Below are positions 5,420-41,888 of a stretch of 64,000 bases of DNA, piece after piece. The position numbers and the translations under genes are program-made. The stretch is from Cyanidioschyzon merolae (lineage: Eukaryota), in NCBI GenBank assembly GCA_000091205.1, contig AP006499.2; one strand, written 5' to 3'. Below the pieces are notes generated by a model, which worked only from the letters and a program-made list of their open reading frames with translations, ran no database searches and was not told where the DNA came from. Every line of letters starts with the position of its first letter. The first letter of the stretch is position 1.

Positions 5420-6060
5420 GGATGCGCGATGTGCCCTGGCGGCCGCACGCGCTGCGCATTGTCCGTTTCTTTCTCGATGATAAAATTCGGTTGACCATGG
5501 ATCCCAGATTGCGGGACATATAATGATGATTGAAAACGCGTCCATCTTGATGCATCTTTCTTCGAGTTCCATTGCTTTCACTTTCTTTCGAATATACTGG
5601 TCGTTTTTTACTTTCTATCATGTACCGAGTGCCTGACTGCGCCCACAGTAGCGCTTATACCGGTGGAGCTGATGCAGCACGGATACAGAACAGCTGTGTC
5701 GTACCACTGAGGGTTTCGGATCGAGGAACGATTCACCTGATACGGAATCAGTGCGGACAATCATTCTGGGAGCCTGAAAAGTGGGCAGAGAAACCTGGTG
5801 CCTGCAGCAGCGCGGACCGATATGCTAGGAGATAATTGCAATATTGGCGACGCCCAGACGCAGTATCCTAGTACTTGTCTAAGAATAAAGAGTGTTGCCG
5901 ACAAGCTGTGCAGGTCTCGCCACAGCACCTGCCACTCGAGGGAGTATGAAGCACTAGCCCGGCAGACCCGTCCGGTTCGCGGGACCTTCCACACAGAAGG
6001 TAAAGTTTCGAAGATACGGAAACCTTTCCCCCTTCAACGCTTTCCATGAAGGTCGAAAGA
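5420..6060 (+). repeat. Dispersed repeat family A, copy a (at least 640 bp). It is homologous to 19290..19935 (approximate bounds).
   Basis: Similarity to the 19.3-19.9 kb copy is visible by eye over the whole length. For example, gtaccgagtgcctg...ccactgagggtttcggatcgaggaacg...cattctgggagcctg...caggtctcgccacagc... appears in both. Confidence 0.7.
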
Positions 6061-6099
6061 ACCTGTTATTGAGTTGCTATTTAGTGGTTAGTTTCTGTT

Positions 6100-6290
6100 C
6101 TTTCGACAGTGGATCGGGATTCGCTTTCATTCTGGGAGCCTGCAGACTGCGCAGACAGACCTACTGCCTGCGACAGCACGGAGCGATACGCAAGGAATCC
6201 ACTGCGACCCAGACGACGCTTAGACGCAGCATATCAGCTCCTAGTCCCAGAATAAACTGCGTTCCAGACAAGCTGCTCAGGCCGCACTAA
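6100..6290 (+). repeat. Partial tandem re-duplication of an internal segment of repeat A. It corresponds to about 5755..5940 of copy a.
   Basis: cattctgggagcctgcagactg...tagtcccagaataaactgcgttccagacaagctgctcagg resembles copy a at 5755..5940 and copy c at 19645..19800. Confidence 0.6.
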
Positions 6291-14449: not shown

Positions 14450-14900
14450 ACAAAATATCAGTGAAATAGAAAATGTCCCGCGACCATGCAGGATCAATGA
14501 GCACCCACGGATAGATGCCTCCCAGGCTTTTTTGACCCGCTGTCTGCTATCGGTTTCAGCTTCTCACTGTACGCTTCGAGCGTGAGGGGATGTCCAACAA
14601 AATTTGGACCCCCAGCTCCTCGGGTCCCGTCTCCAGCACCGCATATCGTCTGATACTGATGGCGGCGTTGAAGTCTCGGTTCATAAACTCCATACGTTTT
14701 GATGCCTCTAGTTGATCTTATCAATGTGCGTATTCCCCGAGCTCGCGCTTTCAGTACCATTTGCTGCTCTGCCAACTCTCCGTGCGTGTCCAATGCCGAA
14801 GCGCTCCGTTGGCTTCTCTCCGTTACGGCCTTCTGAAGCGTACATTCCTGCTCTTTCCATAAGTTTGAACATGAACGCACTTCCTGACGCCTTTAGATGA
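14450..14900 (-). pseudogene. Degraded 3' fragment of the TnpB/Fanzor-like element (copy 4). It retains the RuvC-III motif, is frameshifted, and carries the conserved 3' tail.
   Basis: The minus-strand translation contains RMEFMNRDFNAAISIRRYAVLE. The upstream KARARGIRTLIRSTRGIKTYG aligns to ERRAKVRGLLALVSTTSDGKKRMEF in copy 1. The conserved tail ggaggcatctatccgtgggtgc lies at about 14501..14522 (reverse complement). Confidence 0.6.
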
Positions 14901-18398: not shown

Positions 18399-19289
18399 TA
18401 TCCAGCGTTATACACAACAATGAAACTGCGAGTTGCAATCAAGTAAGAACGCAAACGTTCATGCAACACGAACGGAAAAATCGTTTCGTGATCATCGACG
18501 ATGGGCGGCAGCGTGCTCGCGATGCAGGGCTTCGAAGGATCGCGGCGTTCGGTGCAGCGGAATCGGGATGCCAGAGACGCCAGCACACTTAACCTTTCTG
18601 TGCCTGTGCTGGAAAAAAAGAACGCAGCTATCTCTTTGAGAGACATCAACATCTGGGAATCACTGTGGTAAATGAAGGCCAGCCACTTACTTTGAGTGTA
18701 GTGCTAGCAACTGATGGTCCCGTAACTGAGCTCCAGCACTCACCAGTTGTCAGCGAACTCATACTCTACCCCCTAGGTGGAAGGTCCAGCGAACCAGATG
18801 CGCACACGGGACCAGTGTTACGCGTACCTAATCACTGGTGGGTGCCAAGCACAGACCCGAGTCGCCAACCGACGGCAACGCTTTCCATGTACGATCACGC
18901 AGGAGAGAGGCGGCTCCCAGGATTCATCGTAACAGCCAAGTTTCTCCAATGTGTTGTGAAGCGAAAGCAAGTTTTGCATCCGCAGGCTGTCCGAGCACAA
19001 ACTGACAACGAGACCCAGTTCTACGTCAGGTGAAGCATGCCTCGAGCAGACGCCGTCTGCGGTACGGCAACGCCGTTCTGTTTCTGTGCTACGACAGCAC
19101 CGGCGCTACAAGCGCTATTGAGGCGGATGTTCACGGGCAGGCACTCGGCGCCCGATAGCACGTCTGAAACACCATTACATCCGAGAAGAAGTATGGGTTA
19201 TGAAACTTGGACGTAAGGCGTGGAATGACGAAAGTTCCACCGCGCGCAGGCATCAAGCGCACAGAGTCGCGGCACGCTCGCCTGTGTGA

Positions 19290-19935
19290 GAAGTTTTCAC
19301 ATGGAACAAAATCCGCTGCATTTGCTGTTGCCGCTGATTTTTCTCCAATGACAAAACGTTTACATTGTACTTGGATTCCAGATAGCGAGATGGATGGGTA
19401 TAGCTGATCGAAAAAGTGTCCATCATGATGCACTCTACCTCCATGCTCCGTTCCTTATACTTCCTTTCGGATGTACAGATCGTTTTGTGCGTTCTGTAGT
19501 GCGACCGAGTGCCTGCTTTGGGCACCCGCCTTAGCGCCTATACCACTGGGACGGATGCATCATGGAGATAGAACAGCGTTGCCATACCACTGAGGGCGAC
19601 GGATCGAGGAACGCTTTACCTGATACAGCGTTGGAGTCCAGAATAATTCTGGGAGCCTGTAGGCTAAACAGACAGAACTTTTGGCTGCGAAAGCACGAAC
19701 CGATATACTAGGAGTCTACTGCGATCTGGGCGACGACCAAACACAGCATCCCGCATCTAGTCCCAGAATGAACCGCGTTGCGGACGAGCTGCTCAGGTCT
19801 CGCCACAGCGCCCGCTACTGGGGGGAGCACGAAGCACGAGTCCGGGAGACTCGTCCGGCTCGCGGGACTTTTCGCCTAGAGGGAGGATTCTTCAGAATAT
19901 GGAAACCTTTTCCGCCTTTTCAAAGTTTATCGTAG
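19290..19935 (+). repeat. Dispersed repeat family A, copy c. It lies about 400 bp upstream of the start of TnpB/Fanzor-like element copy 1.
   Basis: Homologous along its whole length to 5420..6060. Minus-strand small ORFs in both copies are also related (MEVECIMMDTFSI vs MELEERCIKMDAFSI). Confidence 0.7.
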
Positions 19936-20318
19936 AAGGGGAAAGAAATTGCCGTATCGTTGCTCGCTAGTCGTGAGTCTCTTTTCTTTGTTCAACATAG
20001 CGCAGTCGATTTGCGCACCAGGGAGATCTGTCAGTTTCGAGTCACGACGCGTATGCTGCCGTTGAAGGGAAACGCGATCCTGATCAATAGCGTGCTGCTC
20101 TAATGTGCAAGTTGTACTTGCGTTAAAGACGTGGCAAAGTACAGTTCTTCAGTTCATTTGTGTTTCAAACCTCAAACAAGTGTATTCAACTGTTTTTTCG
20201 CAGTATATAACTGAAGCGTTCAAAGTCCGTTACAAAAAATAAAGAAGGAAAGTCATGGAAAACCAAGTCGACGATCCTGGAGGCCCAGTGTGGCTGGCCG
20301 CCAGAAAAAAAACAAAAA

Positions 20319-21776
20319 AATAGTGCCGAGTCCAGAAGAAAGCGAAGTGAAAAAGAAGCATTAGGGGAGGCTCTACGTCGAAGGCAGCAAGAAAGACGTC
20401 TGTACAACGAGATGGCGGTGAAAGCCTGTCTTCGTAAACATACCAAGGATCCGTACAAGGAAAAGTTGCGAGGCGCTATCAGAAACCGTGTCGAGTTCTA
20501 ATCCATGAGTATTATAAAGGCGTCATCAGTACGAATGCATTTGGTGTCGGAGATGTACGGAGACGTGACGCACATGGAAACAGTCGAGGTTCCGGATGCG
20601 TTTTCCGACAAGACTTCTATTCGTCACCTGATGCTTGGTACAGGGGAATCGTCGACGAAAAAAGAGCTAGTCCATGCCTTCCACGAAAACTTTGCAGATT
20701 TCCGCTTCGAGGGTACTCGATACAAGGGTGACGGAAGTATTTACACATACGGGGCGATGAAGTACATCACGAACCTGAGGAACCATTTGACTATGAACCC
20801 GGAGCGTTTCATGATACGCACCGTCTTTGCGCTGTACCCGGGACTGTCTCGCAAAGGAGTATGGGCGATTATCAATGGGATCACGAACGATCGCAAGCAT
20901 GAAGATGACAAGGAGGCGGATCTCGCGACGAAGAAAGTGCAGGATAACGACTCTGTCGTTCACGCGGACCCTGGGAATACGAATATCATAACCATCGCAG
21001 CACCCAAGCGTGGGGAAGATGGTACTGACGGTACCTTGCGTCAGAAAGATATGTGTCTTTTGAGGTTCTCGAGAGCAAGATACTATCGAGAATCCGTTAT
21101 AATGAATGCGAGAAAGAAAATCGACACATGGAATGCAGGAATGAAGGATCACCTGGAAGCTTTGAGGGAGGTGACGAGCCACGGGGCGGACTTTACAGCT
21201 TCTCGGAAATTCATGGAAGTTCGTGTTGCTCATTGGGATGCGCTGTAGAAAGAATATACAAAGCCCCGGCGGGCTCGTTTGCGTATGAATTTGTATTGTG
21301 GGAGGCAGCGTGCATTCGCAATCTTTTTCAATGAGTTGCGTGCCCTGAAGGAGGACGAGCGTCAAAGTCTCGTAGTAGCATACGGAGCAGGGCGCTGGAA
21401 GACCCAAAAAGGATGTACACCAGCTCCAACGACAAGAACGTACAAGGAGTGCGCACGGCGTTTTGTTACGGTGCCTGGAGATGAGTTCCGAACATCGTAT
21501 GTGCATCATGAACTGTGATGTACGCTTCAGAGAGTGGAGATGGAAAAGTGCCAGAGGAGCCCTGAGGATATAAAAAAGTACGGAGCGCTGACAGATGAGC
21601 AAATGGAAAGGAGGGCGAAAGTTCGAGGATTGCTTGCATTAGTAAGTACAACCAGTGATGGCAAGAAACGTATGGAATTCGTGAATCGTGACTTTAATGC
21701 CGCCGTCAATATAAGGAGATATGCGGTGCTGGAGAATAGACCTCCAAAGAAGACACAACAGGACTTAATTGGATAA
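20319..21776 (+). pseudogene. TnpB/Fanzor-like RNA-guided-nuclease homolog ORF of copy 1, interrupted by three nonsense codons. Read-through or a recently inactivated gene are both possible.
   Basis: See the element entry. At the TGA position, copy 3 has GGG and copy 4 has GAA, so the ancestral codon was probably GGA (Gly). Confidence 0.6.
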
Positions 21777-21905
21777 TCACTCAAGGTGGAATTATATGAG
21801 ACAATATTGGAAGCGGTAGTAGGTGGCCGGTCCAAAAAACTAAGAGGCGTCTGCACGTCAGCTGAAGATGTCTAGTCTAGGGCGGGTCACTCGCCGCTAT
21901 TGTAC
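20319..21905 (+). mobile_element. Near-full-length TnpB/Fanzor-like element (copy 1). A single reading frame of about 485 codons carries RuvC-I-like and RuvC-III motifs and is broken only by three in-frame stops. It is followed by a conserved non-coding 3' tail of about 130 bp.
   Basis: RuvC-I-like motif SVVHADPGNTNIITIAAPKRGEDGT (Asp codon at 20967..20969). RuvC-III motif KKRMEFVNRDFNAAVNIRRYAVL (Asp at 21690..21692). All segments 20319..20498, 20502..21245, 21249..21515 and 21519..21776 are in frame 0. In-frame stops: TAA 20499, TAG 21246, TGA 21516. Confidence 0.65.
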
Positions 21906-22389
21906 ACGGCCGCTGGTGGCAACGTTTTTCGTTTGAAAGGCGTTTGCTGTCTGTCGATCGAAGCCACCATAGGCTCACACCTAACTAGAAGCCCCGGTTT
22001 GAAACTGCATAGGCAGCGTATAGAGATCCAAATCGTCGACAAGCCACTTCTTCTCAATGCTCGCGAGCGAGCAGTTGCAAGTATTTGGAGGACACACTCG
22101 CTCGAACTAACGCACCTGTCACTGCGAGCGGTTCCACATCATGGTTGTTGTAGCGCACTTACTCTACGTGACGGTTTCCGTGCACGCAACTTTAGACGAG
22201 ATTCTTAGCGGTTGGGGTCGGAACTTAAAATGCGTCCTAGATCGGAGGCGCCCTGGCCTCGCAGGGCCTAGAGACACCCGGCCTCGACCAAGGTCAGGCG
22301 GGCACGTTCTTGACGCATTATTCGCACGCAAGCTTCCTTTTCCACCCAAGGACTCGTTTGATGGGTGGTGCACGGCGCCACTTCAGACG

Positions 22390-23748
22390 ATGGCTTCGCT
22401 ACCTTCTCCGTGGCCCATCGTGGCGATAAAGAAGCGTCGGCGAATCGTCTTTGCAGGGTTCTCGGTGACGCGGGCAGTTTTCAAAAGGATAACTGAGTCG
22501 TTTCAGCAGCGCTGGCTGGCGAAAACCGGAGAAGATGTCGACTTCGGTCTGAGTTTTGCGGGATCTGGTATTCAGTCACGGGCCATTCGGGACGGTCTTC
22601 CAGCGCATGTATGCTGCTTGGCGCTCGTGGATGATATCGAAAAGCTCGCACGCGGGGGCTTCATTGACCAGGCGTGGCGGATGCGAACCCCCTACAACGG
22701 TATTGTTGCCCGCTCGCTGACGGTGGCTGGATACCGTCCTCAGTTGGACGCATCTCCGTCGACGGATAAGATATGCGAGTGCTTCTACGATATTTTGGCG
22801 AAGAATCTTGCAGTCATTACAGCGAATCCGAAATCAGCGGGAGCTGCACGGTGGAATTTTTTAGGGTTGTGGTCCGCGGCGCGCTCCGGAACTATGCGCT
22901 TCGAACCGACATTTATTCAGAATGCGCTGCAAGCGAGGGACTCGACAAAGAACGCGATCCTCCATCGAATGCTCGAGACGGAGAATGACTGGATTGCTTT
23001 GGCCTTTCTCAGAGAGGTGTATCTCCGGGCTCCGGTGCTCCCGCGGGACGGACGCGATGCCACCGATGTCTTTCTGCGCCAGGAGCTGGGTGACGTGCTA
23101 ATAACGTACGAGAATGAGGCCATTTTGGCTCAGATGCGGGGTCTTCCCCTCGCGTACAGCATACCATCAGCGGAAGCCAACTGTCTCATTGAGTTCCCCA
23201 TCAGCGTAGTGGACCGGAACGCAGACCGCGAGAAAGTTCGGGATGTCGCTGATGCTTTTGTGGAATATTGTTTCAGCGACGAAGCACAACAGATTTTTGC
23301 TGACTACGGATTTCGCCCGGTTTCTGAGCGAGTGTTTCAACAAGTTCGGGAAAGATTTCCATCCCCCAGTATTTTAGAGACTGTAGATGAACACTATGGT
23401 GGATGGAGTGCCGTCATGCAGAAATTTTTCGTCACCGGGGCAGTCTTCGATATTCTTTTAGAGCAGGTATCACTTGAGCTCTTGCGTAGAAGGAGAAGTC
23501 AGAGGCGATGGATCTTCGGTGGCAGGCGCGGCCGAGGTGCACAGCAGGGCAACATTCCACACCACAAGCACGCGAACCTGGTCATGGACTCTGACGAATC
23601 CGAGCAAAGCACCAACTATGCATCAATGCAAATCCCGAGAACGAATCTCGTCGTCGTCGAATACGAGCAGCAGCAGCAGCAGCAGCGTCTATGTCGAGAC
23701 GGGATATCTGACGAGCGTTGCATACGCGCGGCTTCTTGGCTGCAGTAA
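22390..23748 (+). CDS. sbp: Sulfate/thiosulfate-binding protein (Sbp/CysP-type periplasmic binding protein homolog). It is probably the substrate-binding component of a plastid sulfate ABC transporter, and has a C-terminal tail of about 100 aa of unknown nature.
   Basis: [26 protein letters not shown] aligns with the bacterial Sbp signature [40 protein letters not shown]...[45 protein letters not shown] matches the Sbp N-lobe. The domain ends near [10 protein letters not shown]. ATG at 22390; an upstream ATG at 22141 is also possible. Confidence 0.78.
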   Translation: [452 protein letters not shown]

Positions 23749-35269: not shown

Positions 35270-36400
35270 AGCTTGAGCGTGTTGACCAAAAAACATGGGG
35301 ATGCAGTCGCCAAGGAGAGTGCTAGTTCATGCACTGCCGTCTTGTACCGAAATAGCAACGACAGAGTTCCTAGAACGTCGGGATCCGTACGAAGCACTGG
35401 AACCTCGAGTTGCTTTTTTAAGGTGATAAGACTTCCTCTTGACGAAACGGTCAGAGCGTGTACGGGTATTCGCGGAGCAGGGAGCACGATGTATGCACTA
35501 CCGAACTTTAAGAGAACGAGGACACTATCTGTTCTAGCTGGAGTGGATTCTTTTCGCGGCCTCAGTTCCGCTAGTAGACAAGGTTCATACAATAGCTCCA
35601 AACACTGTATCGAATCATTGAAGACTTTACCCTGACGTCTGGCGACGTCCGCCCATTGGACAAAGTGGCATTTTCCAATTTCCCTAGCGGTCGGGCTTTC
35701 GCCGATTTTATCGGGGCAGAGCTGATTTTCATTCCTACGTGCATTCCGTGGTTCAGCCACATCGAAGGAGTGTTTTTACCCTGAAACGTCATGATAGTTT
35801 CAAGTGCGAATCCCTGAAGCGTTCAGCACATGGTGACACACCGGGTACATTTTATCTGTCTTGCGCAAATCCTTCTCCCTCTGAGAAAGTCCTCACCAAG
35901 GGGCATCAAGAATTGCGTTCATCTAAAGAAATAAACCATCCAACGGATGAGCTGAAGTGTGCACTTCAGAAGGTCGAGATGCAACGAAGGCAGCGGAGCG
36001 CTCCGGCGATCGAAAAGCACAGAGCGCCGCTAGAGCGCTAAATGCCACAGAGGGCGCGATTTCAAGGACTTCTGCTACTGATGCGTTCCATCGTCGTCAA
36101 TAAACGCGTGGAGTTCGTGAACCGAGACTCCAACGCTGCCATCCATATCAGAAGATATGCAGTGCTGAGGACGAGACCCAAGGAACTGACGAGAGCCAAC
36201 TTTATGGGGCAACCTCTCAGTGTCAAAGTGTACAAGGGCAAGCTGAACCCCCACAGCAGGGGGCCGGTCAAAAACGCCTGGGAAGCGTCTGCACGTGGGT
36301 ATTCATTTACTCTGTATGGCCGCGAAACGTTTCCGCTTCCTTGACTGTGGAAGCGAAATCCGTGGTGACTTTCACAGCATTTTGGCGCGCTTTCGAGCAG
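35270..36400 (+). pseudogene. Diverged, truncated copy (copy 2) of the TnpB/Fanzor-like element. It has the RuvC-III motif and the conserved tail fragment, and ends about 130 bp upstream of the TLK gene.
   Basis: KRVEFVNRDSNAAIHIRRYAVLRTRPKELTRANFMGQPL (36042..36344) resembles the C-termini of copies 1 and 3. The upstream ...FFKVIRLPLDETVRACTGIRGAGST resembles ...FFNELRALKEDERQSLVVAYGAGRW of copy 1. The tail ggaagcgtctgcacgtggg resembles ggaggcgtctgcacgtcag. Confidence 0.55.
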
Positions 36401-41189: not shown

Positions 41190-41888
41190 ATGCTCCGCCC
41201 GCACATCATAAGGTATCTGTGCTGTGGAGCCGCCAGCACCCCGATGCTGGGGCAGCAGCGCGAACTCGCGGCTTTTGTGGAGTCCGCGCACCCCGAAACA
41301 CGCCTGCAGGGCCATGGGCACGGCAAAAGCAGCCACCGTGTCTGGCAGAAAGCCACAGCACCACTTTCATGGCTTGTCGTGGAGAATTTCGTTTCCGGTT
41401 TACAGCAACTCGGAATGAGCGTACAAGGCGTGTGCACCTCGTTTCGCTACGATACTTATAGATGAGTTCCGAACATCGTATACACACCACGAACTGGGGT
41501 GTACACTTCAGAAGGTCGAGCTAGGAAAGTGCCAGCGGAGCCCTGAGGATATAAAAAGCACGGACCGCTGACAGAAGCGCAACTGGAAAGGAGAGCGAAA
41601 GTTCGTGGACTACTTGCATTAGTGAGTACAACCAGTGACGGCAAGAAACGTATGGAGTTTGTGAATCGTGACTTTAACGCCGCTATCAATATCAGGAGGT
41701 GTGCGGTGCTGGAGACGAGACCTCCAGAGTTGACACGAGAGAACTTTATTGGACAACCTCTCAAGTCGAATTATATGAGACAAGATTGGAAGAAGTAGTA
41801 GGTGGCCAGTCGAGAAAAACTGGGAGGCGTCTGCACGTCAGTGGGAGACGTTTCGTATAGGGCGCTGGTCGCCACTACTGCACACGCC
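41190..41888 (+). pseudogene. 3'-truncated, frameshifted copy (copy 3) of the TnpB/Fanzor-like element. It retains the RuvC-III region and the full conserved 3' tail, and ends about 17 bp before the uS9 start codon.
   Basis: Nucleotide identity to copy 1 is visible from about 41400 to about 41888 (DEFRTSYTHHELGCTLQKVE...KKRMEFVNRDFNAAINIRRCAVLETRPPELTRENFIGQPL). There is a frameshift near 41465. The tail runs ...ggaggcgtctgcacgtcag...ctactgcacacgcccg. Confidence 0.65.

Follow-up and report, generated by a model that had tools for sequence, protein, structure and literature searches.

Random decay as the probable origin of three in-frame stop codons in a defective CMe-1A (Fanzor1) copy of Cyanidioschyzon merolae

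Locus and host context

The sequence analyzed here (the window) is a stretch of 64,000 nucleotides from chromosome 17 of Cyanidioschyzon merolae 10D. Three of its open reading frames (ORFs) match annotated 10D proteins letter for letter: the tousled-like kinase BAM82073, CMQ169C and the mannosyltransferase BAM82065. The window has ten long host ORFs, these three included, and TAA, TAG and TGA each occur among their terminators. A tRNA scan of the 64-kb window found no tRNA gene, and the C. merolae genome as a whole has only 27 introns (PMC4829280). All coordinates below are those of the window, and features lie on the plus strand unless otherwise indicated.

The frame whose codons begin at positions divisible by 3 (frame 0) contains a long Fanzor/TnpB-like reading frame that ends at the TAA at 21774. 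It is interrupted by three different stop codons, TAA at 20499..20501, TAG at 21246..21248 and TGA at 21516..21518, and for all three the initial annotation had given the coordinates, codons and frame correctly. Recognizable Fanzor-like protein flanks each stop, as that annotation also held, including the motifs DPGNTN, DEFRTS and NRDFNAA. In these motifs the codons for all three catalytic RuvC residues are retained, and each is conserved across homologs: the RuvC-I Asp at 20967..20969 (DPGNTN), the RuvC-II Glu at 21483..21485 (DEFRTS) and the RuvC-III Asp at 21690..21692 (NRDFNAA).

Opposite the Fanzor frame there is an antisense ORF of 311 codons (20667-21602, minus strand), which most likely owes its existence to the purine richness of the sense strand; across positions 20001-22000 the GC skew is 0.16 and the AT skew 0.14.

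The CMe-1A element and its family

The Fanzor-like frame is part of a mobile element copy that extends from 19338 to 21946, about 2.6 kb at present and about 3.26 kb before an internal deletion described below. The left boundary (19332-19349) is common to L002, L023, L076, L058 and other related loci, and the right boundary, at about 21946, is the point 3' of a terminal hairpin at which similarity between copies ends. The first ~675 bp (19338..20013) constitute a 5' non-coding module resembling TE-N2_CMe. Only part of the family has this module, and copies accordingly fall into two classes, one contiguous from about 19338 and the other beginning at about 20013. Sequence related to the module is also found at 5624-6103 of the window. 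Immediately 5' of the element is a different short repeat (19000-19221), which also adjoins several other copies, in either orientation (L017, L019, L021, L023, L068 and L080).

Relatives of this element are numerous. A protein search returned 121 homologs, mostly 70-80% identical and all from environmental assemblies, and among metagenome contigs at least 360 related loci were confirmed, 80 of which were fetched for comparison. Five remnants are present in the window itself. A family consensus was built from 27 near-full-length copies, and the window copy is 87-88% identical to it.

A Fanzor1-encoding family named CMe-1A has been described from C. merolae (Bao & Jurka 2013, Mob DNA 4:12, PMC3627910). 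It comprises ~150 copies that are ~80% identical to their consensus, the consensus is ~3 kb long and lacks TIRs, a few copies are still intact, and the 5' 635 bp correspond to a separate repeat, TE-N2_CMe (PMC3627910). The window copy fits this published description. It shares the host, the multi-copy state, the length of ~3 kb, the lack of TIRs and the single Fanzor1-type ORF; copies are likewise ~80-88% identical to a consensus, and the 5' module of ~635-675 bp is likewise found as a separate short repeat. There is no difference in kind between the two; the window copy is a defective member whose lesions are the deletion, three frameshifts and a total of three to five nonsense codons. The family has thus been known since 2013, and this copy is an ordinary defective one.

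Relationship to Fanzor and TnpB nucleases

Standard profile searches provide little to anchor the encoded protein. No Pfam-A family was matched by the window protein or its homologs, a search of NCBIfam with the protein produced nothing relevant and no TnpB model match, and a profile of alignment A1 compared with PDB sequences gave just a chance match and no solved Fanzor chain. The sole profile link is a weak precomputed match to PF26935 (DUF8286). An AlphaFold (AF2) model of the longest homolog, P0001, is of low confidence (pLDDT 49, pTM 0.29), and it was used for its Foldseek ranking with its geometry left aside. With this low-confidence model, ranks 1-7 against the PDB are all Fanzor proteins (SpuFz, GtFz and PpFz), at TM-scores of 0.19-0.25; the top five have E values from 1.9e-4 to 1.2e-2, and ranks 6-7, both PpFz, are not significant (E ~0.7). 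The earlier label "TnpB/Fanzor-like" stands through the combination of motifs, literature and this weak structural signal.

The characterized nucleases SpuFz1, GtFz1 and PpFz (PDB 8gkh, 9cez, 9cer and 9cf0) have the same split RuvC order of D..E..D and are transposon-borne, as is the case here. However, their sequence identity to the CMe-1A protein is just 11-18%, there is no match at the profile level, and the window copy, unlike those proteins, cannot encode an active enzyme. The bacterial TnpB proteins of IS200/IS605 and IS607 elements also provide a parallel, in that an RuvC-type nuclease is carried on a mobile element with a 3' terminal or subterminal hairpin. The CMe-1A protein differs from them in matching no Pfam or NCBIfam TnpB model, in the absence of an accompanying TnpA, in its eukaryotic host, and in being much longer, with an N-terminal extension.

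Ancestral codons at the three stops

At each of the three stops, the ancestral codon can be read from two sources, namely DNA copies projected on the consensus (for codons) and protein alignments (for residues). The TAA at 20499 is derived from TAC (Tyr), present in 40/52 copies, and 16/19 homologous proteins have Tyr or Phe at this position. The TAG at 21246 is derived from TGG (Trp), found in 73 of the 82 copies, with Trp in 81 of the 90 proteins. At the TGA at 21516, the ancestral codon is GGA or GGG (Gly): GGN occurs in 80/82 copies and Gly in 58/68 proteins. One base was substituted in each case (C>A at the TAA, G>A at the TAG and G>T at the TGA). Protein and DNA alignments with homologs are colinear and gapless across all three stops, and the homologs have a conserved residue at each of these positions.

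At each of the three sites most family copies carry a sense codon, a result that points to pseudogene decay. The proposal of a gene inactivated by derived nonsense mutations is right in kind, since TAC>TAA, TGG>TAG and GGR>TGA are each one base away from a conserved codon. The initial annotation had based its case for the TGA on two other remnants in the window, and here only half of the comparison holds: the remnant at 41417-41885 (copy 3) does have GGG at this site, but the codon read as GAA in copy 4 is AAG when taken in frame.

It was also considered that the stops might have been inherited from a defective master copy, as the TAA (consensus codon 60) and a TAG/TAT at codon 685 recur in L023, L027 and L036. 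This candidate was set aside. The recurrence is probably a coincidence, as the L023/L027/L036 locus lies outside the 25 nearest copies (at a distance of >17%), and among ~66 loci with ~150 stops such overlaps are expected.

Deletion, frameshifts and the end of the frame

The initial annotation had found no indel-type disruption across the flagged interval. Alignment with full-length relatives overturns this description, revealing a 654-bp internal deletion inside the interval and two frameshifts just upstream of it. The deletion junction lies at 20895..20908, with a breakpoint at 20907/20908 and a 14-nt microhomology, AAGCATGAAGATGA. Full-length relatives contain the 654 bp (218 codons) absent from the window copy, and the AAGCATGAAGATGA motif occurs in frame on either side of the missing block. 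Because the deletion joins these two similar in-frame motifs, the reading frame is kept. Recombination or slippage involving the microhomology is its probable origin. What was removed is the most conserved N-terminal block of the protein, equivalent to residues ~193-459 of P0001, and this block holds the sole two invariant columns of alignment A3 (W335 and D359) as well as a predicted beta-hairpin.

Immediately before the RuvC-I motif lies a 75-bp (25-aa) tandem repeat, KHEEKKEA..QKVQDNDLVVDA (4357-4726 in L004; 20895-20966 in the window). Between one and five units occur among copies. The window has one, and a tandem-repeat search of the window copy found none.

The ancestral ATG and first 22 codons are located at 20255..20323, a segment that reads MENQVDDPGGPVWLAARKKTKK followed by a stop; it can be aligned to the N-terminus of L003, which is in frame. 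The first frameshift falls within an A-run (A8-C-A7, 20305..20320), which is expanded by 2 nt (segment of 40 nt, family mode 38). Because of this expansion, the ATG at 20255 is in another frame and runs into the TAG at 20321. The second is a 1-nt deletion at 20359..20360 (GAAGC^ATTAGG; segment of 47 nt, mode 48), after which the sequence is in frame 0. The first ~35 codons of the frame-0 translation are thus partly outside the ancestral frame. The A-run at 20305-20320 is a length hot spot in the family: the corresponding segment ranges from 31 to 42 nt in 27 copies, 26 of which fall at 36-42 nt, and as a consequence the ATG is out of frame in many copies. Part of this variation may be metagenome assembly error.

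At the other end, the TAA at 21774..21776 that terminates the frame as read is itself a nonsense codon, derived from a CAA present in 65/82 copies. The consensus ORF extends 35 codons past 21774, and distant homologs continue with ...GQPL.... In the window this C-terminal tail (21834..21865) has decayed, with a 1-nt deletion in the A-run at 21834-21839 and a TGA at 21863-21865 that stands at consensus Trp codon 733. Counted along its entire ORF, the copy has accumulated five stops and three frameshifts in addition to one large deletion, a ratio that is usual in the family.

Orthologous loci and the age of the copy

Three environmental loci (L005, L006 and L007) are 97.3-99.3% identical to the window across 18729-23272, a span that takes in the element and the flanks on both sides. 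Because the alignment spans both flanks, these loci represent the same insertion in related strains. All three have the deletion, the TAG at 21246 and the TGA at 21516. The TAA at 20499 is common to L005 and L006; L007 starts at 20558 and covers just the TAG and the TGA. L005 and L006, which alone extend into the 5' region, also have both N-terminal frameshifts.

It had been suggested that the gene was recently inactivated. Since the orthologous loci share the stops, the deletion and the frameshifts, the inactivation is not recent, and the copy was already dead before these lineages split. The same sequence comparison is evidence that the insertion itself predates the split of strain 10D from its environmental relatives. 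One codon differs in state: 21720..21722 is TAT in the window and TAG, a fourth stop, in L005, L006 and L007, with TGT as the family consensus. Nonsense changes are therefore still being gained, or still segregate, at this locus.

The substitution pattern after inactivation, judged from the window and L005-L007, is neutral, although the counts are small: differences by codon position are 4/5/4, 3/5/4 and 4/2/3, an even distribution. The window differs from these orthologs about three times as densely in the frame (1.1-1.3%) as in the neighboring gene (0.35%). The 5' module has diverged further, by 6% from L005 and L006, compared with 1.1-1.3% for the Fanzor part and 0.35% for the adjacent gene. 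Gene conversion with other copies is one possible reason for this uneven divergence. The window copy has diverged by 11% from the family consensus, and no paralog is closer to it than 15%.

Decay statistics

The presence of several stops without frameshifts had been singled out as an odd pattern. In 66 non-redundant copies, covering 115 kb aligned to the consensus, 151 in-frame stops were counted versus 103 net frameshifts. At this family rate, 1.25 frameshifts are predicted in the window's 1.4 kb, and the probability of finding none is ~0.29. Six of the 43 near-full-length copies have between one and four stops and zero frameshifts in the same region. The pattern is thus not beyond chance. 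In a simulation of neutral decay, in which the consensus was decayed with the window's own 155 substitutions and their own spectrum, 5.6 +/- 2.3 stops were expected, and four are observed when the TAA at 21774 is counted.

Differences from the consensus are concentrated at third codon positions, both in the window copy (41/40/74 for the three positions) and in the family (4430/3548/7187). As a result of this third-position excess, part of the 11% divergence must date from a time when selection still acted on the lineage, and for this reason the neutral simulation somewhat overestimates the expected number of stops. The excess agrees with a Fanzor ORF long kept under selection, and maintenance of the ORF by selection during the spread of the family is also the view of Bao and Jurka (PMC3627910).

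Origin of the stops

Taken together, these data make it very nearly certain that 19338-21946 is an old, dead copy of CMe-1A, a Fanzor1 element with an RuvC-type ORF, that carries ordinary random damage. Coding selection on the copy would have lapsed, and random damage would then have accrued, in an order of lesions that we infer. This damage comprises the single-base nonsense changes TAC>TAA, TGG>TAG and GGR>TGA; the CAA>TAA change at 21774, a fourth nonsense mutation that now ends the frame; three small frameshifts, of which two are close to the ATG and the third is in the tail; and the 654-bp deletion between similar in-frame motifs, with which the conserved N-terminal (WED/REC-type) core was lost. 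The stretch free of frameshifts (20360-21773) would be due to chance and to the choice of interval. As far as sequence comparison can tell, the stops are presumably neither decoded, spliced nor read through, and the locus would yield no functional nuclease and no protein. Points against this reading are the presence of all three catalytic RuvC residues, the third-position excess and, for the Fanzor assignment, the missing profile matches and the low-confidence structure model.

The retained RuvC motifs could instead be taken to mean that the stops are recent, independent hits in a freshly inactivated Fanzor that was functional until lately. Such a history would also be compatible with every stop being one step from a sense codon and with the lack of any small frameshift within 20360-21773. 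It is nevertheless very improbable, as the conserved core is deleted, the copy is as distant from its paralogs and consensus as noted above, and the stops and the 654-bp deletion recur in L005-L007, which differ from the window by 0.7-2.7%, together with both N-terminal frameshifts in L005 and L006. A directed process of stop formation, either RIP-like or a deaminase-type C-to-T/G-to-A hypermutation of repeats, had also been raised. G>A is indeed the commonest change with respect to the consensus (36 of 155), and transitions from GC to AT outnumber those from AT to GC by 56:32. Two of the three stop-forming changes are transversions, however (C>A and G>T), and the overall spectrum of 88 transitions and 67 transversions is far from the near-exclusive transitions of RIP. 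Indels are moreover common in the family, as the 103 net frameshifts illustrate, and there is next to no chance that hypermutation was responsible.

The same negligible probability attaches to the idea that a protein is still made and that the stops are bypassed by micro-introns, programmed read-through or a variant code, for which the frame looks open between the stops and nothing more. Tiny in-frame introns, one of the explanations offered at the outset, find no counterpart in the alignments: there is no extra sequence around the stops relative to the homologs, which are colinear without a gap, so that any intron would remove conserved residues, and the host has few introns in any case. Programmed read-through, a second such explanation, is contradicted by the normal termination of the window's host genes on TAA, TAG and TGA. 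The question of whether host genes ever use these codons internally receives the same answer, as all three are the terminators of the ten long window ORFs. Codon reassignment of the kind found in Blastocrithidia or Condylostoma was rejected on the same grounds, host ORFs ending normally. Nor did the window scan find a tRNA gene, and the frame itself is without an in-frame start and without 218 codons of its core.

Three different stops without a frameshift are best regarded, then, as the product of random decay in an old transposon copy. The odd pattern vanishes upon alignment with full-length relatives, and the apparent lack of indels is explained by the absence of such relatives from the first comparison. 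By-products of the analysis are a lesion map of the copy, evidence on the age of the insertion and family-level decay statistics for CMe-1A. The finding otherwise matters little, being ordinary pseudogene decay in a known repeat family.

The 3' end and other Fanzor remnants in the window

The element reaches ~35-40 nt past its apparent end, in the window (21908-21946) as well as in L003, L018, L063, L083, L015 and L023, following ...CACTACTGTACAC. This extension contains a 3'-terminal hairpin, AACGTTTTTC-GTTT-GAAAGGCGTT (21921..21945), that is found in most copies. Its sequence takes two forms, CGTCGTTCGA-CTT-TCGAACGGCG and AACGTTTTTC-TTTT-GAAAGGCGTT, with base pairing preserved in both, and similarity between copies ends directly after ...GGCGTT. 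The hairpin may serve as a signal for transposition or termination, or it may belong to an omega-RNA. When the 3'-most 270 nt from 51 copies were folded together with RNAalifold, support was weak (covariation term -0.27) and no convincing omega-RNA structure emerged.

There is a small chance that this protein-dead copy is still transcribed, through its 3' region and hairpin (21656-21946), as an omega-RNA-like or guide-like RNA, or that it is mobilized in trans by the few intact CMe-1A copies. If so, the window copy would be a non-autonomous yet active partner rather than inert debris.

Four further Fanzor remnants are present in the 64 kb, at 41417-41885, 35947-36296 and 900-1678 on the plus strand and at 14467-14844 on the minus strand. 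The remnant at 900-1678 has only ~32% protein identity, and it could represent another Fanzor family.
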